From NCBI GenBank assembly GCA_001816455.1, contig MHCB01000038.1, positions 7,965 through 71,964 on the forward strand: a DNA stretch of 64,000 nt, given 5' to 3'. Shown here one piece after another: positions 27,179 through 62,420 of this stretch (the stretch's first letter is position 1; every line of letters starts with the position of its first letter). The translations under genes and the position numbers were made by a program. Source of the stretch: Candidatus Blackburnbacteria bacterium RIFCSPHIGHO2_12_FULL_44_25. GTDB lineage: Bacteria > Patescibacteriota > Microgenomatia > UBA8517 > UBA10165. The notes beneath the pieces are model-generated. The model searched no databases. It saw only the letters and a program-made list of their open reading frames with translations, and was not told the origin of the DNA.

Positions 27179-27318
27179 GGTGCTGATTCAGCCGAAAGTC
27201 TTTCAGCTGACTCTTGGAACTTGCGAACAATTCGTAAGCTTCAAGAGTGTGTGCCAGCCGGGTGCTCTAATTTCGCGTTGTTATACGCAATTTGTATTAG
27301 GCACCCGGGCTGTTTGTG
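27179..27318. repeat. about 135-bp upstream element, copy 2
   Basis: Direct repeat of 26345-26478. It lies immediately 5' of the 26483-27139 gene. Confidence 0.7.
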
Positions 27319-27339
27319 GTTGTGCGGCCTATGTTTGTA

Positions 27340-27966: not shown

Positions 27967-28101
27967 ATTGTTGCCTTTGAGCGTTAATTAAGGTGCAATC
28001 TATTTAAAAACACCAATTGCTTGCTGTTTTTAAGCGATTGCCGGGTACCGATCTTGTGCACGATGTGTGCGACGAAGACCGGCACCCGGTGGAAGGAAGA
28101 G

Positions 28102-28587: not shown

Positions 28588-28860
28588 TTTCTTCCTTCAT
28601 ATTTTCTGTGTGCTTATTGCAATCACAGGCGGCTTGTTAAGCAGCACACTGGCTACCTCAACTTGCACGAAAGAGATATACCAGAGTGCTACCAACAAGC
28701 TTTATTCAAGGTGCTAAGCTAATCCTGCTCGCTGCTGCTCCCAGGATCTTCGGCAACGTTTTGCCTCGATGTGTAAACGAGGCAAAAAGCGGCCTCGAGA
28801 TTATTTAAGTATTGTACCTCAAAGAAGCTCAAAAGTCAACTACTACAGGTTACTGCATGG

Positions 28861-28935
28861 AAAAGCCCCCGGTCTCGCGTCAGTCGTCTGGTTTCGTTGT
28901 TGAGACGAATCGTTGACGGCGAGGTCCGGGGGCTT
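28861..28935 (-). terminator. long hairpin terminator after the 28960-29535 gene
   Basis: Minus strand AAGCCCCCGG…CCGGGGGCTTTT with an internal substructure. Confidence 0.45.
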
Positions 28936-28959
28936 GTTGGTACCAGTCGGTACCTGGTT

Positions 28960-29535
28960 TTAGGATGTGTTTGGACGGAGGAGCGCAGTTAGCTTCTCTT
29001 GGTGCCCTTCGTCCTTTGGTATGGTGAGCAGCTCCTCTGCGGTGGTCCCGACTGATTCCGGCTCGAGCTTCCCTGCTTCCAAATGGAAGAGAAAGTGGCG
29101 CCAGGCACCGGTTTTCCCTGTCTTGATCAGTTCGAGATCGTGGGCGGCCGCCTCGGCGTTGTACTCCCTCTCGAGCATATTGAGCTCTTCTGGTGAGGTA
29201 CCGATTGCTCGGAGGGCGTCGGAGTCTGTAGGCAGTTTGGAGAGCATGTAGTAGAACAAGCACCCTCCTTCCCGCAGGTCTCTGAGCACTTCTTGAGCTG
29301 AGGGTTCTGGATCAGTGTTGTGTGATCCGTACATCACCCTCAATACCATGGCTTCCTGATCCTCTGGGAGACCAAGGGCTGCTGCGACCTCGGCTGCGCG
29401 GCCTTCCATGTCGAACATCATTCCCCGCATCCTTTGTTGCCAACCTACGTTCATTTTCAGCTCCTCTATTGTGTTTGAGAGCTTCTCGACTCGCCTAAAG
29501 GTTTGGTCGAGGTATAAAAGGTGCCAGAAAAGCAC
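28960..29535 (-). CDS. hypothetical protein
   Basis: 191-aa GC-rich ORF; likely start at MNVGWQQRMRG. Confidence 0.4.
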   Translation of the reverse strand: MLFWHLLYLDQTFRRVEKLSNTIEELKMNVGWQQRMRGMMFDMEGRAAEVAAALGLPEDQEAMVLRVMYGSHNTDPEPSAQEVLRDLREGGCLFYYMLSKLPTDSDALRAIGTSPEELNMLEREYNAEAAAHDLELIKTGKTGAWRHFLFHLEAGKLEPESVGTTAEELLTIPKDEGHQEKLTALLRPNTS

Positions 29536-47100: not shown

Positions 47101-48769
47101 ACGAAAGTTTCTTTTAATGCCCAATCCCCCTGTTTCCGATCAGGCACCAAGACCAGGATTAGGAAAGATCGTAGCGGATATTAGAAATAATTCTCCCGTC
47201 TTTGAGGAGCAGTGGAAGACGGATAGTTTTTTAAGATCGTTGGATGACATAGAGAAAGATCCCTTTAAGATACTTGCGCCCCCAGGAAGTTCTGATAGAG
47301 AAACTGCTGTATATAGGCTAATTGGTGATGCGGTTCGGAAGGATCCCGTTGCTCAGAAGGAGGTTCAAGAGGCGGTAAATTCTTATTATTCAAGCTATGT
47401 TGATATTTTGAAGAGAGTTGAAGCTCAGACTGAGATTCCGAACACTCCCGGAGAATATATGCTGTCTGCTGCTAATTCGTTTTCTGCGCGAGTTCAGGGA
47501 GTTGGACAGTTGATTACAGGTGGATTTAGCGCTTTGAATCCGTTCAAGAAAGCCGGAGTTAGTGTTGATCTAAAGCCAGTTCCTGTTCGGTCAATTGGGG
47601 GTTCAGAGGGAATTTCTGCTGGCAGACAGGGTGTCACGGAAGGTTTGGTGCAGGTGGTAGATGTAGGTAGTTCGCAGACGGTTTTGGGAGTGGGCACGGA
47701 AAATGTACAAGCAAAGGCGTTGTTTACTGGAGTTGATACGACTCTTCCGGTATCAAGCTATACACTGTCGCAGGCTATAAGCGAGGTGCCAGAAGACGGA
47801 GGCGTTCTAAGCGAGGAAACACTTGCAAAAAGCCTTGCGTCGAGTGTTTTGGAGCCCGAAGGATATAGAATTGGTAATAACTATGTTTTGGCAACAGGAG
47901 AAGATGGGAATGTGGTTGCGAAGATTCCTTCGGGGAGATATTCATTGCAGGCAAGGCCAGTTGATACTGTTCTTTTAACAGGGATGCCTGGGGAGTTTTA
48001 CCTTGGGCCCGGTTTGGGGGCAAAGGTATTTGTTGGGGTGTATGCCGCCGACCCGCCTGTTGGCGAGGCAGGTGGAGAGAAGGTTGTCGGTCGGGCCCAG
48101 GTGATTCCAACAAACGATGGCGAACTTACCGTTCAGTTGTACGACGACACAAACGGAAACGGCCTACGCGAAGCCGGAGAAAACACAATTAAATGGGCTG
48201 GGGTTGTTTTCACTGCTGCCCAAGAAGAAACTATCGGCGAAGTCTCGCTTCTTAACGGTTGGAATTTGGTAGGATTCTCAAATACTCCCCGAACGGTTAA
48301 AACCGCTTCCGGTTTGGTGCGTGAAGTTGTAAGGCAAGGAGGAGATGTTACTGCCATTTCAAGGTTGGTTGATGATCGTTGGGAGACGTATGTTCAACGG
48401 GGAAGCGAAACGTTTGGCAACGACTTTCCGTTGGAAGCAGGCAAAGGATATTTTGTTCGTTCGAGAGTCGCCTCAACAATTCTTCTTGGAGGAGAGCCGG
48501 TTACTAATACAAGGATAAAGCTTTCGCGCGGATGGAATGTTGTTTCTACGTCCGGGGCGGCAGAACCTATCACTGTTTCTGCATTCATTGATAAGATGGT
48601 TATGGCAAGAAGGACATCTGAGCCCGATGTTGTCTCTCGTTGGGAATCAGGGTTGTGGGATTCGTTTGTCAAAAAAGCTGGAGAGGATTATGGAAACGAC
48701 TTCCCCATTGCTCCATTTCGTGGTTACATCATAAAAGCCAAAGACGATGTTGAGTTTGAGTTTCAATAG
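38108..48769 (+). CDS. giant secreted multidomain protein (3553 aa) with a J-domain, a PP2C-like phosphatase core, an HExxH motif, Cys-rich modules, a coiled coil and Ca-binding C-terminal repeats
   Basis: Single uninterrupted ORF. Good RBS (AAGGAGGG). Signal peptide MRVFLKKAGVIFLVFVNFISPLYPVVWITPVRAS. P/E/Q-rich linker. Three GCCxD…C…NGAC modules. A/E/R/Q-rich coiled coil. J-domain DYYKILGVS…KKWHPDV…LTD. PP2C motifs TTLVGGTVVNGKLLAVSYGDSYIYILRDG / GDRVIFASDGF / GDDVTIG. DHERVHG motif. DDTNGNG SdrD-B-like repeats. Confidence 0.8.
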   Translation: MRVFLKKAGVIFLVFVNFISPLYPVVWITPVRASQEQSSLLAYSDDDGDGVPDEVSEEQPPEEAPVEEPQPSEDAPQPDVPQEEAPPQEAPPQESPPQEENEPVQDQPSDSPPSPPEAAPPPQEVVSAPSIPEQPSGSGTGGYFTPGDGSSPSAPTPTFCPSVGKYEGDEYQECYGPGTSRHVRISGCSWQIVQEVVSNPACPGAGTPESTQFQDTQEQNNTEENYCSGLGRYKGSTWSVCSGNPGEATAWQASAACEAVSVGSAGEPNCAGSVGSLPQDGVGSLPLPGESTQVLNPSPSISACGIEMSFQRCVLGTTTLISGVMLSTVDLETQKCTTTEQIQSTSENSTSCGYSDVSQDKIPPGSGGCCNVDDDCVAQGFEGQECLVSNGACSGAGKSCATPQAEVAAKIKSGVDGCCSDGSQCGSGEECYVGNGACRSGLSCGAERTNSGSGGCCSDFSDCASQGLKFNGCFSSFDAGLCKSGQSCRPISCSGAQFCSGGTACYDQGQCANYQAELARQRAQAALASARSQCYSSLEPGCVAILAGGDQIVIEDAGQAQSLCNTNTVTGYSCGGATAAASSANSSGLRSTSGLAVGDRVIVDGVETTITEVDGSLVKVANNPYWFGEFYAKSVSEKPAQNQSFGQIIILPDGQQAAVKSVKANGDLVLWDGKEISSSSNTAKPIVPKEAATVNTSLSCNDFFEQEYTAPTVADGETVSVSGSKYQCSLGGWTKIGNADDGTFFPDAINPGVKQLAIQVGANVHLGQDDRRAPTFLDVLPVLPGMSKAETDYEKVLRVLNELGIPPEFDPNNPISARVWTEEKKIEFAKRVGQETDRSPLATVMRSLENTPLGFVVNLVSDVNIGELSDHISGAGAILQFAQGESRDAHFSEADAIADNKYTDEEFAVLAQAMQEKGVIANTSELPNKGDLALYDRVVKEFLAKQAFGSYGLQVVGPDQVAVLRRQLETDPAKLEELKNFANFTGIVSAEESDKLTPGFMATGRVGTEKIQSYQKGTYQSAAGQAFLEEAGEAAQGVAQDLAFVAGANVAIAIAAEAGAGRIVGWGVGRVAGTEVGQAVAKFATHSILKIPSEEVLSDVTREGLDVAKREYLEAQRARVLAFGDEAVSGSESFLQKNADEARRKLEEAYRGAFGDDADKVLESAVSKLDIMAGADVSQIVREQGEEYAQKFAGQTSVSDAVVNPSVVADNAFSPADQVVAASSRQGRVVLESIPDGAAGVVDDIPTNYPGVVAEVAEVTDSIDARGGGGFVQDAQDAVGGFFGRFRRSELDPLEAVEDRIAAEAVGDVSARTVDVSPATSRFTKMTPKSIDDAVEMTEDARRFKARLDDLARRIDGVTDNTVRRQLEEEVDQTRGTLIVIRKKADEAIEEIQSFRQDDEVVSRIKAEMEQTRVIASNVGGGNVFDTLKTRFEELPLPSFLRGGSESQLAPYKFEFTPEERLRIEAAKQDLKVKREEALARSRAQVEAIKKEQIDAEARVAAETVEAQQRRQAAQLAQDEAERARLIAESEASAQRAKAAEAEARAKARTANEEQARQASREQDVAARDEEIIEAQIIAERQVADARAKEETRQQATEFLSRQRELEERANRAKSAADEAERKLRQVDNAIAARQTEIDVTIAQAFALRDQYQIVKDLESDLLDSIPEQAHKILVSADYYKILGVSPSATTDEINRAYRSLSKKWHPDVSSQDLEAATLAFKKLTYAKDVLTDTIPIQGATGVYVRRNYYDAASHDAIRQQILAKDPSNFSDAVAYINRQQAKMSEAARAVEQANQRAQQAVRAAEPLNSRIEELQRAREQYLQSAEQHTRTVQAAEQDLQTAAREVMQGQPLTPTQVAYRELNDAGQEYTEKLAEVRTLREERKVAASGGVAGLDFADATSRLDAAEVELKQAAERVKAAQLAYQDSVQSPVERAGGAISDFFDQVTSFFGRGRSASQVADATEVVADVGRVAGPSLRFVQPTAQQVVPASPGLKVGSGVNVSSSGQDAFATGISSAAVADGVSTGGTPSQVVELAQLAANALVERLDAAASRFTDPVLAKQYLENSVTEFAQFVVRQNFELGAARGLYGPEALKQASTTLVGGTVVNGKLLAVSYGDSYIYILRDGKLIKVNEQVKEYLGYNEPNLVSVIIHDLQIGDRVIFASDGFVSFISDNARGKIVKAAGSTNDPQVFALRAQEILRDYYREKGVGDDVTIGSLFYGDLDVKPGLLDGLFDRVPAARSFYISKTDVQASTLSIHARNSAGDIVETRLSVEEVIHRGASSLGDKFTDGAKKQVLLELRGKGVPQSTLDEISRELKRIKKPEDVRSKLVKFTGIPVLGEPTAVSGGVFKSLGLTFPWSEKKFVVEKLEGDQGFAGIRVTARDANGVERKIIIDPSNVDGSYQYPANGFDYKLDELRELGVDERTIQQIDKQLERMAKKSVFDKTPVGQVGGSPFAPANDVAQQTDDVCKVLGASTDSVLGTSTTGGCQKPSLFDLLNPFNKIQPASKIDDVVTVVTSPEETKAIASRLIKTEESTVKMGDFSLSTIKGDDPTNDGLIFYLKPGQNLPKNVVITDKSGNVVDLGKRDTPLLFSDVRKIEIDGTDYSLAHDIWQNPMLFEIRGSSKDAKFDEVIGDITEIWDTAIKSPRRMDAVLAKNFTGEEISAMKKITDFYAQDPNIGGLTAPYDLDTVVELPDDKLAEYLNRTLPFRQVRESDISVFTGLISALKEGRAFTEKEADMFSALEFRHVVATRNVYRGLDEVYITEFNRQFALANMAEAVLSTRLVSKKPFKEHAKHYGDFVELMQSRGVEVPEWVTPFNSDDFRYGIKTDGTKANAAGQYFVSRLEDFDSMAQVLDHERVHGLSKVAYNRNVEFKIRNKLDVEYDRGFASDEGYTDALAYLIKSGGDVDKAIAENAKSTSSYRLASDEILRVAKEVGAASGDEMLGVELLFRGITDRANSSVNRSLVPIQRYYDEKVADSGAKFEERMARFSDKRKFLLMPNPPVSDQAPRPGLGKIVADIRNNSPVFEEQWKTDSFLRSLDDIEKDPFKILAPPGSSDRETAVYRLIGDAVRKDPVAQKEVQEAVNSYYSSYVDILKRVEAQTEIPNTPGEYMLSAANSFSARVQGVGQLITGGFSALNPFKKAGVSVDLKPVPVRSIGGSEGISAGRQGVTEGLVQVVDVGSSQTVLGVGTENVQAKALFTGVDTTLPVSSYTLSQAISEVPEDGGVLSEETLAKSLASSVLEPEGYRIGNNYVLATGEDGNVVAKIPSGRYSLQARPVDTVLLTGMPGEFYLGPGLGAKVFVGVYAADPPVGEAGGEKVVGRAQVIPTNDGELTVQLYDDTNGNGLREAGENTIKWAGVVFTAAQEETIGEVSLLNGWNLVGFSNTPRTVKTASGLVREVVRQGGDVTAISRLVDDRWETYVQRGSETFGNDFPLEAGKGYFVRSRVASTILLGGEPVTNTRIKLSRGWNVVSTSGAAEPITVSAFIDKMVMARRTSEPDVVSRWESGLWDSFVKKAGEDYGNDFPIAPFRGYIIKAKDDVEFEFQ

Positions 48770-50530: not shown

Positions 50531-52012
50531 TTATTTTACAAAACCAAACATGGGGTCTGTGAGGTTGGGGTTTTCTCCCGAGCAATTTTTTTCCATCTCT
50601 TCCCTACCCTCTACTTTTCCCGGAGGAATGACTTTTATTTGTCCGAATTGGCGTGTGTTTTCCCCGTCTGCTAGTTCATTTGGTAGAACTATTGAATAGA
50701 CTGGGCCGCCGTCTTTTGGTTGATTGACGTGCAGTTTGTTTAACCAAAAGAAATATCGGAAACCTACATTTTCTCCTGGGGAAGTTATATAAGAAACTGC
50801 GACACAGGGATAACCTTTTTCTCTTGAGTCGCGCGTAATATATTCTGCCAGAGACTTCCTTTCGTTATATCCTTTTTGGTAAACCTTTTCGTTTAGATGG
50901 AAGTTGAGATTTTTGATGAGGACAAGAGACAGAATACTTAATACTAAAAACTTTCCAATACTGCTTCCTTTGTAGAGTAGGTAGAGTAAGAGAGTTGCAA
51001 AGGTGATAAAAACTATTTCTATACTTGCAAAGTAATACTCGGAAAGTTCGCTTGAGGAGAAAGCGAAAAATAGGATTACACCGAGTGTCCACGTATACAT
51101 AAGAGCAAGCTCTTTTCCTTTTAGGAGCTTTGTCTTTACAAGAAGTATTCCGGAGGCAAAAATTGCTAGAACTAAGAGTTTGTTGTTTCCTGGAACGCTT
51201 TGAGGGTAAAAGAATAAACGGGTGATGTTGTGGGTTATCTTAAGGAAAACATGGTTTAGTTTTCCCAAACCTCCGGGCTCTGCGTTGTGTGCGCTGGTAA
51301 AGTTTTGGATAAGACTTTGGGATTGGGAGAAACCATGTCTTACTTCGAACATAAAAAGTGGTAAAGAGGAGATGGCGAGAGTCGTAATGAAGAGTAGAAT
51401 ATCTTTTTTGGGTGGAAGTTTCTTGGCAAAAAGTAGCGCTGTAGGAATTGCAATTAGTGCTGGGAGAAGAGCGATATGAATGTGCCAAATGAGACCAATT
51501 AGGAGTCCCAGAATCCACAGCACATTGAACTTCCCGCGAGACACCATAACTACACAATAGAAATACCAGATAAGCCAAAGGTTTGTTGGTGTTGAGGGGA
51601 CGATTCTTTGATCAAAATAAACAGAAGCCAGGAGTACTGCTTGTAGAAAAGCGCCGATAAACCCTGTCGTTTTGTTGAACAGTTTTGAGAAAACAAAATA
51701 ATAACTGGCAATGGTGATCATTCCGATTAGTATTACGGGAATTACTGCCCCGATTGGATCCATGTTAAACAATAGAAAGAACGGTATTAGGCTGTAGTAG
51801 AAAAGTGGGCCGATAAAAATGCCGGGGGCCGTTGTGAGTTGCCCGATGAGACGCAGGTGTTTATCAACAACAATGTCTTTTACGATCCAAGAGAAGAGGT
51901 CGCCGTCGTGGGCAAATTCGTATCTATCAACAATGTCGTATGTTCGGAGAAAGAGACCAATTGCAAGGATTACGACTAGGACCCAATGTTTTTTAAGGAA
52001 GGAAAAAATCAT
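50531..52012 (-). CDS. GT-C fold membrane glycosyltransferase (ArnT/PMT, GT39/GT83-like)
   Basis: 493 aa, about 11 predicted TMs, with an N-terminal DxD-like loop (…FAHDGDLFSW…). Confidence 0.6.
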   Translation of the reverse strand: MIFSFLKKHWVLVVILAIGLFLRTYDIVDRYEFAHDGDLFSWIVKDIVVDKHLRLIGQLTTAPGIFIGPLFYYSLIPFFLLFNMDPIGAVIPVILIGMITIASYYFVFSKLFNKTTGFIGAFLQAVLLASVYFDQRIVPSTPTNLWLIWYFYCVVMVSRGKFNVLWILGLLIGLIWHIHIALLPALIAIPTALLFAKKLPPKKDILLFITTLAISSLPLFMFEVRHGFSQSQSLIQNFTSAHNAEPGGLGKLNHVFLKITHNITRLFFYPQSVPGNNKLLVLAIFASGILLVKTKLLKGKELALMYTWTLGVILFFAFSSSELSEYYFASIEIVFITFATLLLYLLYKGSSIGKFLVLSILSLVLIKNLNFHLNEKVYQKGYNERKSLAEYITRDSREKGYPCVAVSYITSPGENVGFRYFFWLNKLHVNQPKDGGPVYSIVLPNELADGENTRQFGQIKVIPPGKVEGREEMEKNCSGENPNLTDPMFGFVK

Positions 52013-52221
52013 TTAGTGTGGAATTTAATAAATAAAAGATCTATTAGGAGAAGAGAAACAATGAGTGCATATTGGGCCCAGCGATAGGCTTTTTCTGGTT
52101 TCATTTTGAAAACTCCACGAGTTTCGTCGTGGCCGTATTTGTCTAAACTGTGGTGTACATCCATATGCCAAAGTGCACCCATAAATAGTATGTTTAGAGT
52201 AAAGAGAAGAAAGAGTTCCAC
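52009..52221 (-). CDS. small membrane protein
   Basis: 70 aa, two TMs. Start overlaps the upstream gene by ATGA. Confidence 0.4.
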   Translation of the reverse strand: MELFLLFTLNILFMGALWHMDVHHSLDKYGHDETRGVFKMKPEKAYRWAQYALIVSLLLIDLLFIKFHTK

Positions 52222-52253: not shown

Positions 52254-52484
52254 TTAAGCGTGTTGGCTTTGTGGATGGATTTTTTCAAGACCGGTAATCC
52301 TGTCTTCATGGCCTTTTGTCTGGTGAGCGACAACGGTTAACTCTTGCTCGATCTTTTGGAGTCGTCCGACTACCTCATCCATTTTGGTAAAGAATTCATC
52401 TTTCGTTGGGAGATGTTTTATTTCTTCTCTTACGACCTCTTTTACAAGTTGTTCTACTTCATTGAAATCCGCTTGAGTCAGCAT
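52254..52484 (-). CDS. hypothetical small protein
   Basis: About 77 aa from MLTQADFNEV… The longer ORF-track version overlaps the SemiSWEET gene. Confidence 0.3.
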   Translation of the reverse strand: MLTQADFNEVEQLVKEVVREEIKHLPTKDEFFTKMDEVVGRLQKIEQELTVVAHQTKGHEDRITGLEKIHPQSQHA

Positions 52485-52522
52485 GTATTCATTGGAACAT
52501 TTGATTGTAAGGAAATCAACGG

Positions 52523-52840
52523 CTAATAAATCATTGCTCCTATTGCAATTGATGAGTTTATAAAGAGCCAGATGGCGCTTGAAAAGAATATAACGCGGTC
52601 TTTGTGAACTACTCCGTAGGCAATCCAAACTATGTTAAGAACTGCGTATGTTGTCCAGGAGATTGTAGATACTCCGCCTGCCTGTTTTTCGATCCAGATT
52701 GTATAGATTTGTGGCAGAGTCATTATGGGGCCAATGGCTGCAGCCATGTATACGACTCTATCCAGGATTCGATAACCTCTTTTGGGGTTTGGAGTTTCTC
52801 CCGCTCTTTTTCGTTTTTGGAGGTGGTGAAGTCCGAGCAT
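52523..52840 (-). CDS. SemiSWEET (PQ-loop) sugar transporter
   Basis: Three TMs with a PQ motif in TM1 (…GPIMTLPQIYTIW…); about 105 aa. Confidence 0.6.
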   Translation of the reverse strand: MLGLHHLQKRKRAGETPNPKRGYRILDRVVYMAAAIGPIMTLPQIYTIWIEKQAGGVSTISWTTYAVLNIVWIAYGVVHKDRVIFFSSAIWLFINSSIAIGAMIY

Positions 52841-52940
52841 TAATCATTAGTATATTACAGAGAATGTGGAATGACTATTCTCTGGGGTTGTGTTATATTT
52901 CGGATGTTCGGAGCGAACGCACAAAATCTAAGTCTGGAAG

Positions 52941-53534
52941 TTGGTTGTGAAAGACAGCGATGTAAGGTTTGTGTTTGTTGGGTTGCCACAAGATGCGAGG
53001 AAGTTGGCCAGACTTGTGGAGGTAATACCGGACGGTTGGTCAGGTCTTACTGGTCGTTTGGATATTATTCCGGAGATGGCGTTGGTTGCTGTGCCGGGTG
53101 TTGGATACCGGTTCAAGGGTATTTCCGGACTTGAGTGCGATGTGGTGGGTGCTCGAGAAGGTGGCTACCGAGTCGAGCCCGATTACATGAGGCTTGTTTC
53201 GGGGAGGGATCCCGTCTCGTTTGTCGAGTTCTATCTTCATAACCCGTATGCGGCGTGTAGGGTTGTGGATCGGGCGCGTGCTGTTGCCGCCGCAGTAGTA
53301 GAGTCCGGCTATCGTGGCGAGCTGTCTTTTCGTCTGGATGATAACAGGCAGAACACAAAGGCCGTGGTTCACTTTTTCTTGAACCCGCCTGAAGGCCGAG
53401 TCCCCCATATCATTGTTCGGTTGATCGACCGAAGCGTTGACGGTCTGTTACCGGAAGATGAGGAGTGCATCATGCCATTTGTCGATGCCTGCCGAGCGCA
53501 AGGTTTGCAGGAGCAGGTACTCGTTCCTGCTTGA
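52941..53534 (+). CDS. hypothetical protein (GC-rich patch)
   Basis: 197-aa ORF in a roughly 60% GC segment bounded by the hairpin at 53553-53592. Confidence 0.35.
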   Translation: MVVKDSDVRFVFVGLPQDARKLARLVEVIPDGWSGLTGRLDIIPEMALVAVPGVGYRFKGISGLECDVVGAREGGYRVEPDYMRLVSGRDPVSFVEFYLHNPYAACRVVDRARAVAAAVVESGYRGELSFRLDDNRQNTKAVVHFFLNPPEGRVPHIIVRLIDRSVDGLLPEDEECIMPFVDACRAQGLQEQVLVPA

Positions 53535-53552
53535 TCGCGCATTTCCTGCCAT

Positions 53553-53592
53553 GGGTGGCTTTTTTTAAGACTTTGTCTTGAGAAAGCCACCC
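53553..53592. terminator. bidirectional hairpin GGGTGGCTTT…AAAGCCACCC
   Basis: 10-bp stem with a T7 run on the + strand. It lies between convergent genes. Confidence 0.5.
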
Positions 53593-53611
53593 GAGCATTT
53601 AAATTAAGACA

Positions 53612-53815
53612 TTATTTCCTGTCGATTCGAAATGAATATACGCCTTTTGACTTAGGTTCTAGAAGTTCTGTGTGAAGAGACGGGTGACGAGGATTTTTCT
53701 GGAAGATTTTAATTTGCTTATTAAATTTTTTGATTAGTCCACGACGCTTAATAAAAAGCTTATGCTTATCGCTTAAGGGTTTTATTGGCATATGTGGATG
53801 ATTCTGAAAGTCCAC
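53612..53815 (-). CDS. RelE/ParE-family type II toxin
   Basis: …IKIFQKNPRHPSLHTELLEPKSKGVYSFRID… is typical of RelE/StbE; 67 aa. Confidence 0.7.
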   Translation of the reverse strand: MDFQNHPHMPIKPLSDKHKLFIKRRGLIKKFNKQIKIFQKNPRHPSLHTELLEPKSKGVYSFRIDRK

Positions 53816-54056
53816 TAATCAAACTATCTATAAACTTTTTATTATATTTTCCAGTTCTTTCAAATGCAGTCCTTATTTCACTTAAAGGCTCTGCTTGAAA
53901 CTCATGGAACACCAATCCTTCGTTGGCTTTTCCTGTGAAATATCTTCTTAGTAAGCTTCTGATGAATTCTGAGCGGGTAGCAAAGCCCTGCTTCTTTGCT
54001 TCTGAATCTACTCTCTTGGCTATTTGGCTGGGTAAGGAAATGGTGATTGTGCTCAT
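53766..54056 (-). CDS. ribbon-helix-helix antitoxin (RelB/ParD/CopG-like)
   Basis: N-terminal RHH (TISLPSQIAKRVDSEAKKQGFATRSEFIRSLLRRY). It is upstream of and overlaps the RelE toxin. Confidence 0.6.
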   Translation of the reverse strand: MSTITISLPSQIAKRVDSEAKKQGFATRSEFIRSLLRRYFTGKANEGLVFHEFQAEPLSEIRTAFERTGKYNKKFIDSLISGLSESSTYANKTLKR

Positions 54057-54260
54057 CCTACTTAATATTTAACAATGTTTCTTAATTTTTGTCAAGGCTA
54101 TTGATTAAAGTTTGTGACTTCTTGAACTTTGTTCTCAAGAGTATTGAATACTCTTTTTAAATCAGATCCTTTTGCTTGTACTGTTTTTGTTGGGAGAACA
54201 ACTTATATTCGACTTGGTTGGTGTCAAGAAGACTGATTAGTTTCTAGTATAAGCCGCAAG

Positions 54261-54659
54261 TTATTCTTTCCTCAGGAGGGAGAATTCGAGGATCATTCCG
54301 TCGGGGTCTTCGCAGTAGATTGCGGTTCCTCCGTAGCCGTTATCGGTTATTCCCCCGTCTTCCATTTCTATCCCCTGCTCTTTGAGGCGTGCTTCAATTT
54401 CTTTAAGATTTTCCATTCCTTCTACTCCAAAAGCCCAGTGGTCTAGCCCAATATCTCCGCGACGGTTGAATTTTGCTGCGGCTTCATTGTTTTCAGGAGC
54501 AACAAGCCAAAGGGAGTCAAGACCTGCTCCTGTTAGACCGGCTGCGCCATGTTCTTCCATGAAAACTTCCATTTGGCAGGCTTTAACGTAAAAATCCTTT
54601 GACTTTTCTACGTCTGAAACTTTCAGGACAATATGGTGTACGCCGGTGGTTTTAATCAC
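54261..54659 (-). CDS. glyoxalase/bleomycin-resistance/VOC family protein
   Basis: 132 aa, betaalphabetabetabeta repeats, HHIVLKV…DHWAFGV metal ligands. Confidence 0.65.
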   Translation of the reverse strand: MIKTTGVHHIVLKVSDVEKSKDFYVKACQMEVFMEEHGAAGLTGAGLDSLWLVAPENNEAAAKFNRRGDIGLDHWAFGVEGMENLKEIEARLKEQGIEMEDGGITDNGYGGTAIYCEDPDGMILEFSLLRKE

Positions 54660-54777
54660 ACTCTATTCTTAGGGTTTTGTTTGGGTTTTGTCAAGTGGGG
54701 TAGCAGGAGTAGGCGGGAGACGTAAATTGATGGGAGTTTATTTGGGAAAAATGTCCTTTGGGGTGGTATAATGGGGT

Positions 54778-54981
54778 GTGTATAACTGGAACATAAACAC
54801 TTCAAAACTTAAGAAAAACCCTGAGAAATATGCTGTTTGGAAACTTGAGCAAAGTATTAATTTTGGCCTTAACGGGAAAAAACTGAAGATTAGTGAGTTA
54901 AAAAAGTATTGGGCTAAACTAGTTGTTGACCCACAAAGAAAAAAACTTCTAGAAATGTGGCTATGGCCAAAACAATCTTAA
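54778..54981 (+). CDS. small protein upstream of AbiEii (possible truncated AbiEi-like antitoxin)
   Basis: 67-aa ORF with a GTG start, 8 nt after an extended -10 (TGGTATAAT at 54761-69). Overlaps the AbiEii start. Confidence 0.25.
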   Translation: MYNWNINTSKLKKNPEKYAVWKLEQSINFGLNGKKLKISELKKYWAKLVVDPQRKKLLEMWLWPKQS

Positions 54982-55622
54982 CCGAAGAACAACAGCTCCT
55001 TCTTAATCTGATCTCCCAACAAAAAGATATAGCGAGTAACTTCTATTTGTCTGGTGGCACAGCCTTGGCTGAGTATTACCTTCAACATAGATTATCGGAG
55101 GATTTGGATTTTTTTAGCATGGAAGAAGTTGACCCCATGGCTATACGGGTGAGTCTTAAAAAAGTACAAAAACGAGCGGAGATAACTAAGATTGATTTTC
55201 AACAAAGTTTTAATCGGAATCTATTTTTTCTTCACTATAAAGACGGGATTGTTAAGATGGAATTTACTTATTATCCGTTTACTCAAATTGAGCAACCACA
55301 AATTGTCAACAACATTAAGGTTGATAGTTTAATAGATATTGCTGCCAACAAAACATTTACGATTTACCAACAGCCAAGCAGTAGACATTTTATCGATCTT
55401 TACTTGATTATCAAGACAAAGGGGTGGAAGTTTAAGGATTTAATCAAAAAAGCACGAGCTAAGTTTGATTCCCCTATTGACCCTATTCAAATGGGCCAGC
55501 AATTGCTAAAAGTGTCTGAGGTGTTAGATTATCCGGTTATGATTATTGAATTGCTGGAGAAAGAATGGCAGGATTTTTGGATGCAAGAGGCTCGGAGTTT
55601 AAAAGAGGAAGCTCTTGAATAA
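54957..55622 (+). CDS. nucleotidyltransferase AbiEii/AbiGii-family toxin (DUF1814)
   Basis: …FYLSGGTALAEYYLQHRLSEDLDFF…, the characteristic GS…D.D NTase motif; 221 aa. Confidence 0.65.
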   Translation: MAMAKTILTEEQQLLLNLISQQKDIASNFYLSGGTALAEYYLQHRLSEDLDFFSMEEVDPMAIRVSLKKVQKRAEITKIDFQQSFNRNLFFLHYKDGIVKMEFTYYPFTQIEQPQIVNNIKVDSLIDIAANKTFTIYQQPSSRHFIDLYLIIKTKGWKFKDLIKKARAKFDSPIDPIQMGQQLLKVSEVLDYPVMIIELLEKEWQDFWMQEARSLKEEALE

Positions 55623-55650
55623 TTTGATCTTGGAGCGGCTATCTTAAACT

Positions 55651-55938
55651 TCAAATTAATAGCAAAGCTAGTAAGACTAAGAGTCCTAAGGATTCCCAGT
55701 AAGAAATTTCCCTGGTATGAAACACTGCTGGAATTATATTGTTCCACAGTGCTCGAACCCACAAATTGATGATGGGCATTAGAACTAAAATAAGGGCATA
55801 AGTGCCAATAAATTCGCTTATTGATTTGATAGGATGTGTGGGGAATAAGTCTGAGTTTCCGGCAAGACTGAGTAGAGCAGTACCAGCCAGGGAGAGTAGT
55901 ATCAGGGGTTTGTTTAGTTTTCTTTGTTTATCTTCCAT
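55651..55938 (-). CDS. hypothetical membrane protein
   Basis: 95 aa, three hydrophobic segments. Confidence 0.4.
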   Translation of the reverse strand: MEDKQRKLNKPLILLSLAGTALLSLAGNSDLFPTHPIKSISEFIGTYALILVLMPIINLWVRALWNNIIPAVFHTREISYWESLGLLVLLALLLI

Positions 55939-56157
55939 TTCTAAAATATAGCATACCCTTCTTTCTGTACGCTCTGTTCCTTTCAGAGCTCCTAATGCAC
56001 TTTTGTTCGAACACCTTTTAGCCTGGCTTGATAGCTTAAGGCAGTTATATCAAAAAGAAAAGGGAACTGATATTTATTTCTATATGACATTGATATAATA
56101 CAGATACAAGGGAAGGTTAATGAGTTTTAGAATTTAACAACCTTATTAATTTCATTC

Positions 56158-56688
56158 ATGAATCTTAAAAAGTTAAAACTTAATAAAAGTAATATTCTTG
56201 GGCTAAAAAAGGTTTTTCTGTTTATTGTCTTGGGCTCCTTAGCCCTATATCTTTTACCACTAGGATTTTCTCTTAACCTTATAACTCCATGGGCTGAGTA
56301 CAGAGATGAAACTTTAGGAATATCTTTTCAGTACCCTCCAAGTTGGCCTGAAACAAAAAGCTACTTTTTAGTCGATAATACATATAATCTAGTTGTGGGA
56401 CGTGTTATGCCGTTCCTTATTACTTTTTCAAAACCTACGGAAAATTATATTAGAAAATTTCCTGAAAATGATTACACTAAAGAACAGACAGTTAATATTA
56501 ATGGGATTGACCTCACTTTTTATCGCAAGAAATTAGCTAATCCAAATAGATTTGTTGGAACATTTGTCTCTCAGAAACCTCCTTTAGAAATAGCTATTGA
56601 TACAAAAACCTACGATTATAGTATTTGGGATCAAAAAAGACATGATCAGATAGTAAGAAGGCTCATCTTTAGTGTAAAGCCACTGTAG
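56158..56688 (+). CDS. hypothetical secreted/anchored protein (low-GC paralog 1)
   Basis: About 33% GC, N-terminal TM, …ETLGISFQYPPSW…. Confidence 0.5.
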   Translation: MNLKKLKLNKSNILGLKKVFLFIVLGSLALYLLPLGFSLNLITPWAEYRDETLGISFQYPPSWPETKSYFLVDNTYNLVVGRVMPFLITFSKPTENYIRKFPENDYTKEQTVNINGIDLTFYRKKLANPNRFVGTFVSQKPPLEIAIDTKTYDYSIWDQKRHDQIVRRLIFSVKPL

Positions 56689-56705
56689 TTACATGCCACG
56701 TAAAT

Positions 56706-57323
56706 ATGAAAAAGCTAAGATTTAATAAAAAAGCTGCTATTATTGTTATTTCAATACTAATAGGTTTATTCATCTTAAGATCTCAAATTTATCTCGGGCC
56801 ATTTTATTCATTCGTACTGTTTTTACAAGACTTCCCTCAGGCCCAAAGACTACAAAAAATATTAAATGCAACTGATTGGAAGGAATTCAAAGATGAAAAG
56901 TTAGGTTATTCTTATATAATTCCAGAGTCTTGGGTTACTGCTGTAACTGACTATAAAACTACAGATGAACATCCAGCATACGGTCAAGAATATAAAGTAT
57001 CGGAGCATGCCTCACCTCAAGCCTATATCAATGTAGTCTTTTATAAAAATCCTAATAAGAATGTTCTGGAAACCTTTAAAAAAGAATCAAAATATTATGT
57101 TGATCCTAATTTAAGGTTAATAAATGGTCTGGAGTATTTTGTAGTACATGATACTTACAGATTTAATGGAGGACTTAAAGTGGGTAATTTTCTTCTTGCT
57201 AAGGATTATAGCTTGCTAGTCGAGGCTAGGCTAGGATACCTTTCAGATAGGGGTCGACTTGAAGCGAAAAAGGAAATAGAGATAGTAAATAAAATCTTTA
57301 ATAGCATCAAGAAAAATATATGA
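56706..57323 (+). CDS. hypothetical secreted/anchored protein (low-GC paralog 2)
   Basis: N-terminal TM, …EKLGYSYIIPESW…, homologous to 56158-56688. Confidence 0.5.
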   Translation: MKKLRFNKKAAIIVISILIGLFILRSQIYLGPFYSFVLFLQDFPQAQRLQKILNATDWKEFKDEKLGYSYIIPESWVTAVTDYKTTDEHPAYGQEYKVSEHASPQAYINVVFYKNPNKNVLETFKKESKYYVDPNLRLINGLEYFVVHDTYRFNGGLKVGNFLLAKDYSLLVEARLGYLSDRGRLEAKKEIEIVNKIFNSIKKNI

Positions 57324-57389
57324 AAATGGGAAATGCTAAGTTAATCGAACACCCAAATCAAAGCTATTTTTGCCTCAATGTTGAGCCTG

Positions 57390-57407
57390 GAGCGGGATAC
57401 GGGAGTC
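57390..57407. repeat. 18-nt duplicate of the tRNA-Gly 3' end (att-like scar)
   Basis: GAGCGGGATACGGGAGTC is identical to 57494-57511 (T-arm/acceptor 3' half of tRNA-Gly), 87 bp away. Confidence 0.5.
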
Positions 57408-57494
57408 CCTTCGATTTCACTCAGGGTAAACTTCTCCTCTCGTTTTCTACTCTGCTTCGCCAAGTTCACGCAAATGGCGAGCTTGTCGAATCAG

Positions 57495-57565
57495 AGCGGG
57501 ATACGGGAGTCGAACCCGTTTTTTCTGCTTGGAAAGCAGATGTTGAGCCGTTCAACTAATCCCGC
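57495..57565 (-). tRNA. tRNA-Gly(TCC)
   Basis: GCGGGAT-TA-GTTG-AACGGCT-CAAC-A-TCTGC-TTTCCAA-GCAGA-AAAA-ACGGGTTCGACTCCCGT-ATCCCGC-T. No CCA. Confidence 0.75.
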
Positions 57566-57586
57566 TTGCGGCGGGTTTTCAAAAAG

Positions 57587-57659
57587 TCGGGGATGGCCGA
57601 TTCGAACGGCCGACCTCTCGCTCCCAAAGCGAGCGCTCTACCAACTGAGCCAATCCCCG
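57587..57659 (-). tRNA. tRNA-Pro(TGG)
   Basis: CGGGGAT-TG-GCTCAGTTGGTAGAGC-G-CTCGC-TTTGGGA-GCGAG-AGGTC-GGCCGTTCGAATCGGCC-ATCCCCG-A. No CCA. Confidence 0.8.
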
Positions 57660-57696
57660 AAGGTGTTGCTGATTATACCAAATGTAGGATGTATAA

Positions 57697-58275
57697 TTGA
57701 AACTGGTGGCAGAAAAATTAAAAATCTTAATTATCAACGGGTCGGTGCATGTTGACTCTTTAAACCTCAAGATTGCAAAGATTGTTGAAAAGGAGCTTCA
57801 AAGTTTAGAGACTCAGTCAACTCTAATTCATTTAGGCGAGGAGAAACTTCCTCCGTTTGAGGGGTATGGTGTCCCTTACCCCCCTCGCGTTAATGAGATT
57901 TTAAAACTGATGACCCAAGCTGACGGATTTATCTTTGTGGTTCCTGAATACCACAGATCTATGCCTTCTGTTTTTAAAAATCTTTTTGAATACATAGACG
58001 ATGAGGAGGTAAAGATTGAAGACCGGCCGGCAGCTTTGGTTACTGCTACTGAGGGGCAATGGGGACAATTTGCGCAGATGTCGATGCATGGCATGCTTAG
58101 GACTTTGCGTGTTTGGCTTGTTCCGGATCAGATGTATATTTCGCAGGCTTCGACACTTTTGGACGAGCAAGGAAACTTAAAAGACGAGAAGCTTTTGGAA
58201 AGATTAAAGAGTTTGGTTTCCCGATTAGTTCGCGCCTCAGAACTTCTACGCCCCTTGAGGAACGGGAATGGGTAG
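57697..58275 (+). CDS. NAD(P)H-dependent FMN reductase (flavodoxin-like fold)
   Basis: …KILIINGS…FIFVVPEYHRSMPSVFKNLFEY… motif pattern. Confidence 0.65.
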   Translation: MKLVAEKLKILIINGSVHVDSLNLKIAKIVEKELQSLETQSTLIHLGEEKLPPFEGYGVPYPPRVNEILKLMTQADGFIFVVPEYHRSMPSVFKNLFEYIDDEEVKIEDRPAALVTATEGQWGQFAQMSMHGMLRTLRVWLVPDQMYISQASTLLDEQGNLKDEKLLERLKSLVSRLVRASELLRPLRNGNG

Positions 58276-59857: not shown

Positions 59858-60958
59858 GTGGATTCCCGAAGAATTTCCGAACATTTGGTGTTGCATTTGG
59901 ATATGAATGCGTTTTTTGCGGCAATTGAAGAACGGGATAATCCTCAATTTGTCGGTCGGCCAATTATTGTTGGGGCAGATCCTAAAAAAGGGGTGGGGCG
60001 GGGGGTTGTTTCTACTGGAAATTATAAAGCGAGGGAATATGGGATCCACTCGGGAATGCCTATTTCTTGGGCGTATCGGGCGTGTCCCGAGGGCGTATTT
60101 TTGCCATGTGATTTTAAGAGGTATGGCAGTGTATCCCGGAACATCTTCTCTGTAATTCGTGGTTATGGCTACCCTACCGAACAGGTATCCGTGGATGAGT
60201 GTTATGTAGAGATGCCAAATTGTGCGGGGTTTGAGAATTTGGCGAGAGAGATGAAGCAGAAGATTTGGGAAGTGGAGCGCTTGACATGTTCGGTTGGAAT
60301 TGGGCCGAATAAACTGGTTTCAAAAGTTGCCTCTAATTTTAAAAAACCTGATGGGTTGACCATTGTCTTAAAGAAAGACGTCCAACGGTTTCTTGATCCA
60401 ATGTCTGTTCGGGTTTTGCCGGGAGTTGGCCCTAAAACAGCAGGAGTGTTGCTCTCGATGGGAGTAATTACTGTTAAGGATTTAAGGCAGACATATTTAT
60501 ACAAACTAAAAGAACAGTTTGGTAAACACGGAGCGCATTTGTGGGAGCTTGCAAACGGGCGTGACGATCGAAAAGTTTTTGAGTCGCATGAGGTCAAGTC
60601 TGTTGGTAGGCAAACTACTTTTTGGAAAGATACAAAGGACCCAAGGATTATCTACGATACTACTCTTGGGCTTTTGAGGGAGACTTTTGAAGAACTTACC
60701 GGTTTGGGAATCTTTGGTAAAACGTTGACAGTTGTCGTTCGGTATGCCTGGTTTGAGACACATACTTCGCAGGAAACTTCGAAGGGGCTACTGACCTTTC
60801 AAGAGGCTCGCAGGCTTGGTTTAAAACTTCTGGTTCCCTACTTTAACAATAAGTTGGTTAGGCTTGTTGGGGTTAGGGTTAGTGGGTTTGGTGGTGGTGG
60901 GGTGAGGAGCCATAGTCCAGAGGAGGGTGTGAGCGGGGCTGCGACAAGTCTGGTGTGA
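59858..60958 (+). CDS. dinB: DNA polymerase IV (Y-family)
   Basis: …LHLDMNAFFAAIEERDNP…VSVDECYVEM… Y-family palm and little-finger arrangement; 366 aa. Confidence 0.85.
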   Translation: MDSRRISEHLVLHLDMNAFFAAIEERDNPQFVGRPIIVGADPKKGVGRGVVSTGNYKAREYGIHSGMPISWAYRACPEGVFLPCDFKRYGSVSRNIFSVIRGYGYPTEQVSVDECYVEMPNCAGFENLAREMKQKIWEVERLTCSVGIGPNKLVSKVASNFKKPDGLTIVLKKDVQRFLDPMSVRVLPGVGPKTAGVLLSMGVITVKDLRQTYLYKLKEQFGKHGAHLWELANGRDDRKVFESHEVKSVGRQTTFWKDTKDPRIIYDTTLGLLRETFEELTGLGIFGKTLTVVVRYAWFETHTSQETSKGLLTFQEARRLGLKLLVPYFNNKLVRLVGVRVSGFGGGGVRSHSPEEGVSGAATSLV

Positions 60959-60976
60959 CTTTTGGTGTCGCAGCCC
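60936..60976 (+). terminator. hairpin GGGCTGCGACA…TGTCGCAGCCC overlapping the dinB stop
   Basis: 11-bp perfect stem with a large loop and no clear U-run. Confidence 0.3.
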
Positions 60977-61205
60977 TGGCTTTGGGCGGTTAGATCTGCA
61001 CAGGTGGGTTTAGCACATTTCCTTCCGCCTGCCGGAAGTCGTGATTTTCCCATACTCGGTGGGTGGCTTGGCCTCCGACGACGTGGTAAATTGCGGCAAC
61101 ATTGTACAGGCCATGTGTGACGCCTGCCGGCATGGCATGTTTGACAAAATAGGCCAGTTGCACGCTAGGGATTTGGGCGGCGGCGACTATTGCAGTCAGC
61201 TCTTC

Positions 61206-61436
61206 TCAGATTCCGAGTACGACTACTAGGTCGTAGTGTGCTTGTGCTCCTCGGATAGATTGGAGAAGCATTGTTGGCACCGATGGTACCTCGTGGAACT
61301 CTGGTTGGAAGGCGCCAAGCCACTCTCGGAGGGCAGTCTCTTCGGGCGGTGTCAAGCTGTTCCTTGCGTTGATGACCATTACCATGGGAATCCTGGCTCC
61401 TTTTGGTCCGGGTTCGCGATTTACTTCTTCGGTCAC
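61206..61436 (-). CDS. hypothetical protein or gene fragment in a GC-rich patch
   Basis: 76-aa ORF; the surrounding 61000-61450 is GC-rich and may be a gene remnant. Confidence 0.2.
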   Translation of the reverse strand: MTEEVNREPGPKGARIPMVMVINARNSLTPPEETALREWLGAFQPEFHEVPSVPTMLLQSIRGAQAHYDLVVVLGI

Positions 61437-61919
61437 GGTCGGTCTCCCTTTTTGCTAAATGGCGCTTCCCTTGCGGGATAGTGATGATTCTATATGACTA
61501 TGGGGTTTTATTCAACTTTTTGAGGTCTTTTATCTGGCGAGGTAAACGAAGTTTAAGGGGTAAGTCAATCGAAGATAGCGTTCTGGGCACTGCCCTTTGA
61601 ACCGAAGTTCTCAGGATAAGTAAGCTGCCTGCCCAACAACCTACTAAGCAATACCCATAGTGCTATCTTCGAAAGTCTTTTATATGTCAATTGAAGAGAT
61701 TTTGTCACCTCTACCCTACTTTGGCAAAATCTTTTATATGTGCGCCCTGCTCTGGATTGAAACCAAGCAGGCAGATCTGAAAGATTCAAAAATAGATTCC
61801 AGTAACAAAAACAAATAATTGAGGGAATCTTAATCTCTAAACTTTAGATAACCCATATTGTACTACACTATGGGGTCAAAGTCAAGTGTTATGGGTGTGT
61901 TTACTTCATGGAATTTCCT

Positions 61920-61940
61920 TGACAGGGTCTCACCCTGTCA
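61920..61940. repeat. REP-B palindrome TGACAGGGTCTCACCCTGTCA
   Basis: 12 bp upstream of the RAYT-2 start. Confidence 0.7.
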
Positions 61941-62130
61941 ATAATATGAATTATGCCCGCGCGTAACAGTGTGAAGATCTACGTAGAAGGTGGTTGTTAC
62001 CATGTTTACAATCGGGGCGTAGATAAACGTGACATTTATCTTGACGATCAGGATTATCGTGTTTTCTTGAGTTTTATTAAACAGTATCTTTCTCCCGTTG
62101 AACCGAATTTTACACACCCCTTGTCTGATG

Positions 62131-62151
62131 TGACAGGGTTTCACCCTGTCA
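62131..62151. repeat. REP-B palindrome inside the RAYT-2 ORF (encodes VTGFHPV)
   Basis: TGACAGGGTTTCACCCTGTCA, in frame. Confidence 0.7.
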
Positions 62152-62420
62152 GGCTGCGTCAGTTGAAGTCTTTTTATGGTGATGTGGAGCTTCTAGCTTA
62201 TTGTTTGATGCCGAACCATTTTCACCTTCTACTTAGGCAGGCTACTAAGGATGGGATGGCTGAGTTTTTGCGAGCCCTGGCTACGAGTTATGTCATGTAT
62301 TTTAATAAGAAATATGAGCGGCAGGGTGCTCTTTTCCAGGGGTGTATAAAGCAGCTAATGTGGGGGAGGATTCATACCTTTTGCATTTGTCGCGATACAT
62401 TCATTTGAACCCACTCGGTA

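Follow-up and report, generated by a model that had tools for sequence, protein, structure and literature searches.

An accessory islet at a tRNA-Gly hotspot in Candidatus Blackburnbacteria and the conserved small partner gene of its short AbiEii nucleotidyltransferase

Introduction

What kind of region lies between the backbone genes and a tRNA-Gly(UCC)/tRNA-Pro(UGG) pair in the genome of Candidatus Blackburnbacteria, and by which steps did it come to be there? The question was addressed for a 64 kb stretch of a genome of this Candidate Phyla Radiation (CPR)/Microgenomates lineage from the Rifle aquifer, which is referred to as the window and whose coordinates are used throughout. A first-pass annotation had described the region as a tRNA-proximal accessory island with the gene content of mobile or defence islands, including a RelE-like toxin with a ribbon-helix-helix (RHH) antitoxin and an AbiEii/DUF1814 nucleotidyltransferase. 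Its gene list proved to be essentially right, since the genes and both tRNAs were recovered at the positions given there (Table 1).

The region at 52485-57493 is a true accessory islet of an ordinary kind, located at a tRNA hotspot. The reading favored here, to which we assign a probability of roughly 70%, is that of a mosaic variable region that was built up in steps 3' of tRNA-Gly(UCC) and is now fixed, with a decayed RHH/toxin module and one functional-looking operon of a small protein and AbiEii.

Comparison of the Locus with Related Genomes

A contig scan with the mem493 alignment retrieved 21 loci, with local synteny being kept in only two of them. These were a metagenome-assembled genome (MAG) from Hainich groundwater (L014, identical to L027), representing the closest genome with conserved local synteny, and a second Blackburnbacteria MAG (L028). 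A corresponding genome contig scan with DUF4153 found no relatives. In the Hainich MAG, the backbone shared with the window runs in the order tRNA-Arg(tct), mem493 (59% identity), orf76 (59%), tRNA-Gly(tcc), tRNA-Pro(tgg), and DUF4153 (48%), and the tRNA-Gly genes of the two genomes differ at 2 nucleotides (nt). The orthologue of orf76, being the gene left of SemiSWEET in the window, lies 87 nt from the tRNA-Gly 3' end in this MAG, and no match to any of the islet proteins, SemiSWEET included, was obtained there by tblastn. Compared with the Hainich MAG, the window thus contains an extra 5,009 nt (52485-57493) featuring 39% GC. The variable segment had previously been proposed to start at 52860; the comparison shifts this boundary to ~52485 and places the SemiSWEET gene, for which no tblastn counterpart was found in the second MAG either, inside the segment.

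In the second MAG (mem493 63% identical), the tRNA-Gly(tcc) points at the same conserved membrane genes, and 4.8 kb of unrelated cargo is located between them, encoding two Bro-N proteins, an AdoMet decarboxylase (AdoMet_dc), and several unknowns. Three genomes therefore feature three different contents at one tRNA-flanked position, which supports an accessory nature of the region. The proposal of a tRNA-proximal accessory region was hence borne out by the comparison with relatives: the segment is absent in the Hainich MAG and replaced by other cargo in the second MAG.

Further differences were observed around the locus. A membrane protein of ~500 amino acids (aa) adjoins mem493 in both relatives (L014:1996-3474 and L028:8375-9895), the 506-aa protein of the latter being the orthologue of the 492-aa protein of the former (45% identity). 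It is missing from the window genome, where just a 70-aa open reading frame (ORF) is present at the corresponding place (52009-52221). A second variable patch is located at 59858-62408, between DUF4153 and tRNA-Leu(taa), and contains a DinB-type polymerase (IMS), an 81-aa GC-rich ORF, and an IS200-like Y1 transposase. This patch is absent in the Hainich MAG, where tRNA-Leu comes 340 nt after DUF4153.

Base Composition and Decay of the RHH/Toxin Module

The ORFs of the 5-kb region range from 32% to 54% GC. The composition had been described as swinging from about 60% to about 33% GC, and the low end of this swing was reproduced, the two adjacent low-GC genes (32.4% and 31.6%) showing the lowest values among the 63 ORFs of the window (z about -2.4). 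The high end was not: the GC-rich ORF upstream reaches 53.9% (z +1.4; GC at third codon positions, GC3, 0.54), with its top 300-nt windows reaching 56%, compared to a window mean of 45.7% and an ORF mean of 45.8% (standard deviation 5.8). At least five other patches of the window are equally GC-rich, including those at 4.1-5.0, 23.3-29.5, 61.2-61.5, and 62.8-63.5 kb. The block at 23255-29535 (GC 51-56%, GC3 about 0.6) comprises six ORFs without Pfam match that are paralogues neither of one another nor of the GC-rich ORF at 52947-53534, and may represent another acquired patch.

The clearest trace of stepwise assembly was found in the RHH/toxin module. The RHH gene is located upstream of the toxin gene and overlaps it by 26-50 nt, depending on the start codon assumed for the toxin. 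For the toxin ORF itself, the sole match obtained was a weak one to the YoeB model TIGR02116 (E 6e-4), covering profile positions 8-58 of 80. A metagenome scan yielded 74 loci encoding relatives of the putative toxin, and in 64 of these the ORF runs 22-25 aa beyond the stop codon seen in the window, ending in a conserved tail of the pattern YRALF...E(V/I)..IT.HY(K/R). The window toxin ends at SFRIDRK* and is ~23 C-terminal residues short, the conserved His-Tyr being among those missing. In the DNA 3' of the toxin stop, nothing left of the tail was detected in the same frame; this DNA leads into a hairpin (53552-53593), beyond which the GC-rich ORF is reached at its 3' end. A plasmid search with the toxin fragment gave no match. 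This hairpin is the most stable 50-nt fold within 52400-57750, with minimum free energies of -28.3 and -26.1 kcal/mol on the two strands (z -4.2 and -4.5 versus shuffled sequences). A second, weaker intergenic hairpin (-20.5 kcal/mol) was found at 57450-57495, so that both hairpins described in the first-pass annotation are present.

Directly upstream of the closest full-length toxins (L052, L054, L094, and L099), RHH homologues with 58-69% identity are encoded, indicating that the module of the window was once a normal pair. The C-terminus of YoeB/RelE toxins includes catalytic residues, and the truncated toxin is, judging from its sequence, probably inactive. In the simplest reading, the rearrangement that brought in the GC-rich gene together with the terminator removed the C-terminus of the toxin and left an orphan RHH gene. 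A toxin gene cut by a rearrangement provides direct evidence for a mosaic that was assembled step by step. Regarding the pair reported earlier, the RHH protein and the gene overlap were confirmed, and the functional toxin was not, the match to YoeB being weak and the gene 3'-truncated. The module resembles type II toxin-antitoxin (TA) systems of the YoeB/RelE-RHH kind in that the RHH gene overlaps the downstream toxin gene, the N-terminal two-thirds of the product are YoeB-like, and close homologues form the same pair, but it differs from them in the loss of the last ~23 residues of the toxin with the conserved His-Tyr. It is probably a dead remnant beside an orphan antitoxin or repressor.

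The AbiEii Enzyme and Its Small Partner

The second TA-like locus of the islet appears functional. Assignment of its larger gene to the AbiEii/DUF1814 nucleotidyltransferases was confirmed by Pfam (PF08843, E 1.5e-16, 61.5 bits versus a cut-off of 22.5) and by matches to 23 PADLOC AbiEii models, and the family comprises 3875 homologues at E 1e-5 or below. Within an alignment of 25 family members, G31, S45, D47, D49, E100, K130, and D145 are invariant and G32 nearly so. The motif S45-E-D47-L-D49, likewise invariant, places the serine two residues before the putative catalytic Asp47. The closest solved structure by sequence profile is PDB 4o8s/4ok0 (E 2.7e-5), to which the motifs GxTAL...R-x-SEDLDF and NK...RD-x-x-DL align, with the identity to the window AbiEii being low. 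The PDB record names this protein just "Putative"; we take it to be the Helicobacter pylori plasticity-zone nucleotidyltransferase JHP933.

The 67-aa ORF preceding the AbiEii gene is a real gene. Its product has 169 homologues of 60-101 aa, nearly all of them 63-70 aa long, and the best 120 of these 169 share 56-99% identity and originate mostly from CPR bacteria, with Daviesbacteria, Microgenomates, Parcubacteria, Wildermuthbacteria, Kerfeldbacteria, and Magasanikbacteria being the CPR members named. The alignment of the family contains nine invariant columns, including M1, N3, W4, L23-E24-Q25, and N28, and can be described by the pattern MYNWN...WKLEQ.INFGL...KKYW.

Furthermore, the small gene is located directly upstream of an AbiEii homologue in all five independent contexts, the window included, and the two proteins diverge in parallel. 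Identities to the window proteins were 87% (small protein) and 80% (AbiEii) in Daviesbacteria (L007-L010), 66% and 53% in Wildermuthbacteria (L011-L013), where AbiEii is truncated to 82 aa, 58% and 65% on a Bacteroidota-labelled MAG contig (L048/L049), and 61% and 62.5% on the GROS21 contigs (L050/L051). At least 20 further pairs, equal in the size of the longest contig, appear across the match lists of the small protein and AbiEii, and one pair carries the adjacent NCBI locus tags G01um10145_66 and _67. In the Wildermuthbacteria assembly GCA_016186115.1 (L011:6001-6436), the small gene is intact and adjoins the shortened AbiEii gene. Such decay, with the enzyme cut and the small gene kept (L011-L013), follows the same toxin-first pattern as the RHH/YoeB module of the window.

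A perfect TATAAT was detected 5-10 nt before the start codon of the small gene in five out of five independent loci (window, L008, L011, L048, and L050). A promoter box so close to the start codon points to a leaderless or near-leaderless mRNA, and its recurrence suggests, at the level of sequence, that the two-gene operon is transcribed in this way.

The ORF had been regarded as standing in the place of a full AbiEi antitoxin. The observation that it is not AbiEi held, with no match in the PDB, AbiEi structures included, and none at E 0.1 or below in Pfam, PADLOC, or NCBIfam; the idea of a makeshift for a missing AbiEi did not, as the small protein was found to be a conserved, dedicated partner of a short AbiEii clade in each of the five contexts. 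The locus shares with AbiE the PF08843 toxin matched by the PADLOC models and the gene order of antitoxin first and toxin second. Unlike in AbiE, the partner does not belong to AbiEi/COG5340, has neither the winged-helix N-terminal domain nor the AbiEi C-terminal domain, and is just 67 aa long. AbiEi proteins measure roughly 200-300 aa. More broadly, searches with the 67-aa protein gave no match among PDB chains or in PHROGs, PADLOC, NCBIfam, and Pfam (the latter queried with the single sequence and with 35 members), and its AlphaFold2 model, consisting of four helices with a predicted local distance difference test score (pLDDT) of 80.5, had no fold match. It is therefore neither an AbiEi protein nor a detectable homologue of MenA1.

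The DUF1814 toxins known as MenT extend the acceptor ends of tRNAs by added nucleotides and thereby block translation. By analogy with MenT and AbiEii toxins, the enzyme of the window would likewise attach nucleotides to the 3' ends of tRNAs and bring translation to a halt. In the case of MenT1, neutralization is achieved by MenA1 (68 aa), which links two protomers of the toxin and triggers auto-phosphorylation at T39, beside the catalytic D41 (PMC10435456, PMC11375011). The MenAT1 system of Mycobacterium tuberculosis (Rv0078B/Rv0078A) resembles the operon studied here in combining a short DUF1814 enzyme with a small upstream partner (68 aa there, 67 aa here) that has no recognizable DNA-binding domain, and T39, D41, K137, and D152 of MenT1 correspond to S45, D47, K130, and D145 of the window enzyme, with the Lys-Asp spacing being 15 residues in both (PMC10435456, PMC11375011). 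In contrast, neither in sequence nor in fold was any likeness to MenA1 (PDB 8AN5) detected for the 67-aa family: MenA1 is a V-shaped two-helix protein, whereas the model of the 67-aa protein is a compact four-helix one. The window AbiEii is likewise too diverged for a profile match to MenT1 and matches 4o8s/4ok0 only.

The best-supported model, drawn by analogy, is that the small partner would bind AbiEii directly and inactivate it, possibly by inducing auto-phosphorylation of Ser45 beside the catalytic Asp47, as MenA1 does with MenT1. In this model, the domain assignment, the conserved residues, the pairing of the genes, and the recurring position of the promoter box are observations, whereas toxicity, the tRNA target, and the way of neutralization are inferred. 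It is plausible that the conserved partner forms a new antitoxin family resembling MenA1 in its working and standing outside both the MenA1 and AbiEi families. A more far-reaching proposal is made tentatively, its chances being put slightly below even: the 63-70-aa proteins would represent a new antitoxin class, with no relation to AbiEi or MenA1 in either sequence or predicted fold, dedicated to a short (~219-aa) AbiEii/DUF1814 clade abundant in CPR/Patescibacteria, expressed from a leaderless transcript, and neutralizing by direct binding, possibly with induced auto-phosphorylation of Ser45.

Alternatively, the pair may not be a TA system, and the 67-aa protein could act as a regulatory or specificity subunit, or as a transcription factor, of a non-toxic, housekeeping-type nucleotidyltransferase. 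This possibility is unlikely, yet it is the strongest of the alternatives considered here. It is in line with the missing similarity of the family to any known antitoxin, with PADLOC finding no complete AbiE system, and with the cassette not being found in plasmids or viral contigs: searches for plasmid matches returned none for AbiEii or for the consensus of the 67-aa family, and the AbiEii family had no relative in the IMG/VR viral contigs. A small gene that comes first, overlaps or abuts the enzyme gene, and occurs patchily in unrelated contexts is, however, typical of TA modules. Moreover, an intact small gene beside a decayed enzyme, as in the Wildermuthbacteria, is the pattern expected when the toxin is lost first, and the catalytic and phospho-acceptor residues of the toxic MenT enzymes are conserved.

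Origin, Mobility, and Fixation of the Islet

An exact copy of the tRNA-Gly 3' end, 18 nt in length (GAGCGGGATACGGGAGTC), sits 86 nt downstream of the tRNA-Gly gene, with 104 nt from start to start. Only these two copies were found in the 64 kb when up to 3 mismatches were allowed, compared to 0.02 expected, and the likeness between them ends sharply on both sides. The Hainich MAG contains a single copy. The repeat is probably the scar of an attachment site (att) core left by a past site-specific integration. A scan of viral contigs with the 18-mer, being loosely relevant, gave tRNA-Gly(ccc) genes or fragments. Among them, two IMG/VR contigs (L126:68-85 and L127:3184-3201) carry the 18-mer within ~50-nt fragments of the 3' half of tRNA-Gly(ccc) that were not called as tRNAs; these fragments look like att sites.

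We conclude that the position 3' of tRNA-Gly is a hotspot of integration or recombination and that the DNA remaining there is immobile. According to the mosaic reading, 52485-57493 would have accumulated over several steps directly downstream of the tRNA-Gly(UCC) 3' end and would now be fixed and devoid of self-mobility. The clearest step would be the arrival of the GC-rich orphan gene and its terminator, which cut the 3' end of the YoeB/RelE-type toxin gene and stranded the RHH antitoxin. One module would still be functional, the operon with the leaderless-type promoter in which the genes for the 67-aa helical protein and the 219-aa AbiEii overlap by 19 nt. The SemiSWEET, VOC, small membrane, and two low-GC anchored proteins would represent cargo.

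Several observations weigh against this reading. The 18-nt repeat brackets 86 nt and not the islet, a search tolerating up to 3 mismatches revealed no distal att copy at the other boundary, and neither an integrase or transposase nor such a distal copy marks the region as one insertion. With protein identities of 48-63%, the relatives are distant, and single genes, SemiSWEET or VOC for instance, may have been lost in their lineages. The composition is heterogeneous throughout the window, so that a deviating GC content is by itself weak evidence. Finally, the antitoxin role of the small protein, which lacks sequence or fold similarity to MenA1 and AbiEi, and the toxicity of this AbiEii clade are argued from gene order and analogy.

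With such distant genomes being the sole syntenic relatives, the region could also be ancestral to the lineage and have been lost or replaced in both of them, meaning differential loss and not acquisition. Other insertions and deletions around the locus (YggT in the Hainich MAG, and in the window the presence of the FMN reductase and the lack of the 492/506-aa membrane gene) fit this view, as does the invariance of the region in the sampled population. Still, loss would have to account for three contents at the same tRNA-flanked position, for the AbiEii cassette and the RHH-toxin module occurring in unrelated contexts of other phyla, for the range of 32% to 54% ORF GC within 5 kb, for a toxin gene cut by a rearrangement, and for a duplicate of the tRNA 3' end just in the genome bearing the islet. 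We consider differential loss rather improbable, and stepwise acquisition remains the preferred explanation.

The location at a tRNA 3' end, the att-like repeat, and the viral contigs carrying tRNA-Gly 3' fragments with the same 18-mer could also be taken as signs that a prophage or integrative element sits intact in tRNA-Gly. This is very improbable. Searches against Pfam, NCBIfam, and PHROGs revealed no integrase, recombinase, transposase, replication, or virion domain in the ten ORFs, the intergenic gaps in the region measure no more than 220 nt, the second att copy is missing from the far end, and no phage or viral-contig relatives were found. The label of a mobile island was accordingly not upheld, as the segment has no mobility gene and no distal att copy and does not vary among 16 assemblies; what is seen is a fixed remnant. 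Nor is the label of a defence island justified, since PADLOC recognizes AbiEii alone.

With tRNA-associated islands, the islet shares the site at a tRNA 3' end, its absence or different content in relatives, TA cargo, and a short direct repeat copied from the 3' end of the tRNA; its composition deviates clearly in the two low-GC genes, while the GC-rich gene is matched by other patches of the window. Unlike these islands, it encodes no integrase, its repeat does not bracket it, it spans just 5 kb, its origin is a multi-step mosaic one, and no presence/absence polymorphism is seen in the population.

Contig MHCE01000019.1 of assembly GCA_001816495.1, a Candidatus Blackburnbacteria genome from the Rifle aquifer, matches the region at 100% identity. 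In total, 16 independent contigs or assemblies, obtained from different samples with different assemblers (ENA, JGI, and NCBI), cover all or most of it, 15 of them at 99.9-100% identity and one (L004) at 98.9% over the shared DNA, the latter strain differing solely beyond 58500. The region is thus not polymorphic in the sampled population; it is fixed and not a live element. An assembly chimera of several organisms, as might be suspected from the mosaic composition and from two contigs (L023 and L026) that break inside tRNA genes, is excluded for practical purposes by the near-identity of these independent assemblies.

Other Genes of the Islet and Its Surroundings

The features of the islet are listed in Table 1. 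The match of the SemiSWEET-like protein to the NCBIfam model (E 8e-14, 51.6 bits) lies under the curated cut-off of 100, and that to Pfam PQ-loop (E 1.9e-4, 21.6 bits) falls just short of the cut-off of 22. The GC-rich ORF has few homologues and no Pfam or PDB sequence match, and none of the remaining GC-rich ORFs in the window is paralogous to it. The VOC protein was assigned with confidence to PF00903 (E 1.8e-12, 48.2 bits versus a cut-off of 20.6), with no specific subfamily reaching its cut-off in NCBIfam, where the YaeR- and Fos-like matches were all below. Its gene is called with 99 or 132 aa in different assemblies, which is not a polymorphism and reflects a gene-calling difference on identical DNA. 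The 95-aa membrane protein matches phrog_705 (E 3e-6) and phrog_2169 ("membrane protein", E 2.5e-5) in PHROGs, and no tblastn match was found in GenBank phages.

Both low-GC proteins start with a basic stretch followed by a hydrophobic anchor, as read directly off the sequence. The 176-aa protein had no family match in Pfam, NCBIfam, PADLOC, or PHROGs and none in GenBank phages; for the 205-aa protein, neither a family match nor a relative in the IMG/VR viral contigs was found. The description as a duplicated pair of secreted proteins was retained with respect to the low GC content and the N-terminal likeness (37% identity, E 3e-6). This likeness is limited to the N-terminal 63-76 residues and does not extend beyond the first 76, so that the term paralogues is weakly supported.

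Besides the two tRNAs, the Rfam search returned nothing. Some pipelines call a 79-aa gene at 57320-57559, overlapping the att-like repeat and the tRNA-Gly on the opposite strand, and this call is almost certainly spurious. Upstream of the locus, a single 3553-aa ORF with a DnaJ Pfam match in the gene calls is located within 38108-48769, and after it comes a protein of 401 aa in which fn3 and Big_13 domains are present.

Table 1. Features of the accessory islet and the adjoining tRNA genes in window coordinates.
Position	Strand	Feature	Remarks
52523-52840	-	SemiSWEET-like PQ-loop membrane protein, 105 aa	NCBIfam SemiSWEET_3, Pfam PQ-loop
52947-53534	+	GC-rich orphan gene, 195 aa, 53.9% GC	Rare uncharacterized family
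53552-53593		Bidirectional terminator-like hairpin	Between GC-rich ORF and truncated toxin gene
53612-53815	-	3'-truncated RelE/YoeB-type toxin gene	59 aa from ATG 53791, 67 aa from GTG 53815
53766-54056	-	RHH (CopG-type) antitoxin or repressor, 96 aa, intact	Pfam RHH_1, E 2e-8
54261-54659	-	VOC/glyoxalase-fold protein, 132 aa	Pfam Glyoxalase PF00903
54766-54771	+	TATAAT box	6 nt upstream of GTG start of small partner gene
54778-54981	+	Conserved 67-aa helical protein, putative antitoxin of AbiEii gene	GTG start; overlaps AbiEii by 19 nt
54963-55622	+	Short AbiEii/DUF1814 nucleotidyltransferase, 219 aa, apparently intact	PF08843; ATG 54963
55651-55938	-	Small membrane protein, 95 aa	Weak PHROGs matches
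56158-56688	+	Low-GC protein, 176 aa, N-terminal hydrophobic anchor	32.4% GC, GC3 0.25, z -2.3
56706-57323	+	Low-GC protein, 205 aa, N-terminal hydrophobic anchor	31.6% GC, GC3 0.24, z -2.4
57390-57407		Exact 18-nt copy of tRNA-Gly 3' end, att-like	Repeat of 57494-57511
57494-57565	-	tRNA-Gly(UCC)	ARAGORN; Rfam 63.6 bits; 3' end faces islet
57586-57659	-	tRNA-Pro(UGG)	ARAGORN; Rfam 67.6 bits

Conclusions

The region represents one more tRNA-flanked variable region with TA cargo, residing in this case in a reduced CPR genome. Horizontally acquired DNA is less studied in CPR bacteria, and the locus indicates that hotspots exist there and decay in the familiar manner, with the toxin being lost first and the antitoxin kept. 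Moderately novel is just the conserved small protein that accompanies the short AbiEii clade, the rest being ordinary. If the 67-aa family acts as an antitoxin, it would constitute a third, structurally unrelated control of the tRNA-modifying DUF1814 toxins, after AbiEi/MenA3 and MenA1, and would explain many of the "orphan" AbiEii matches that current defence-system finders leave unpaired.

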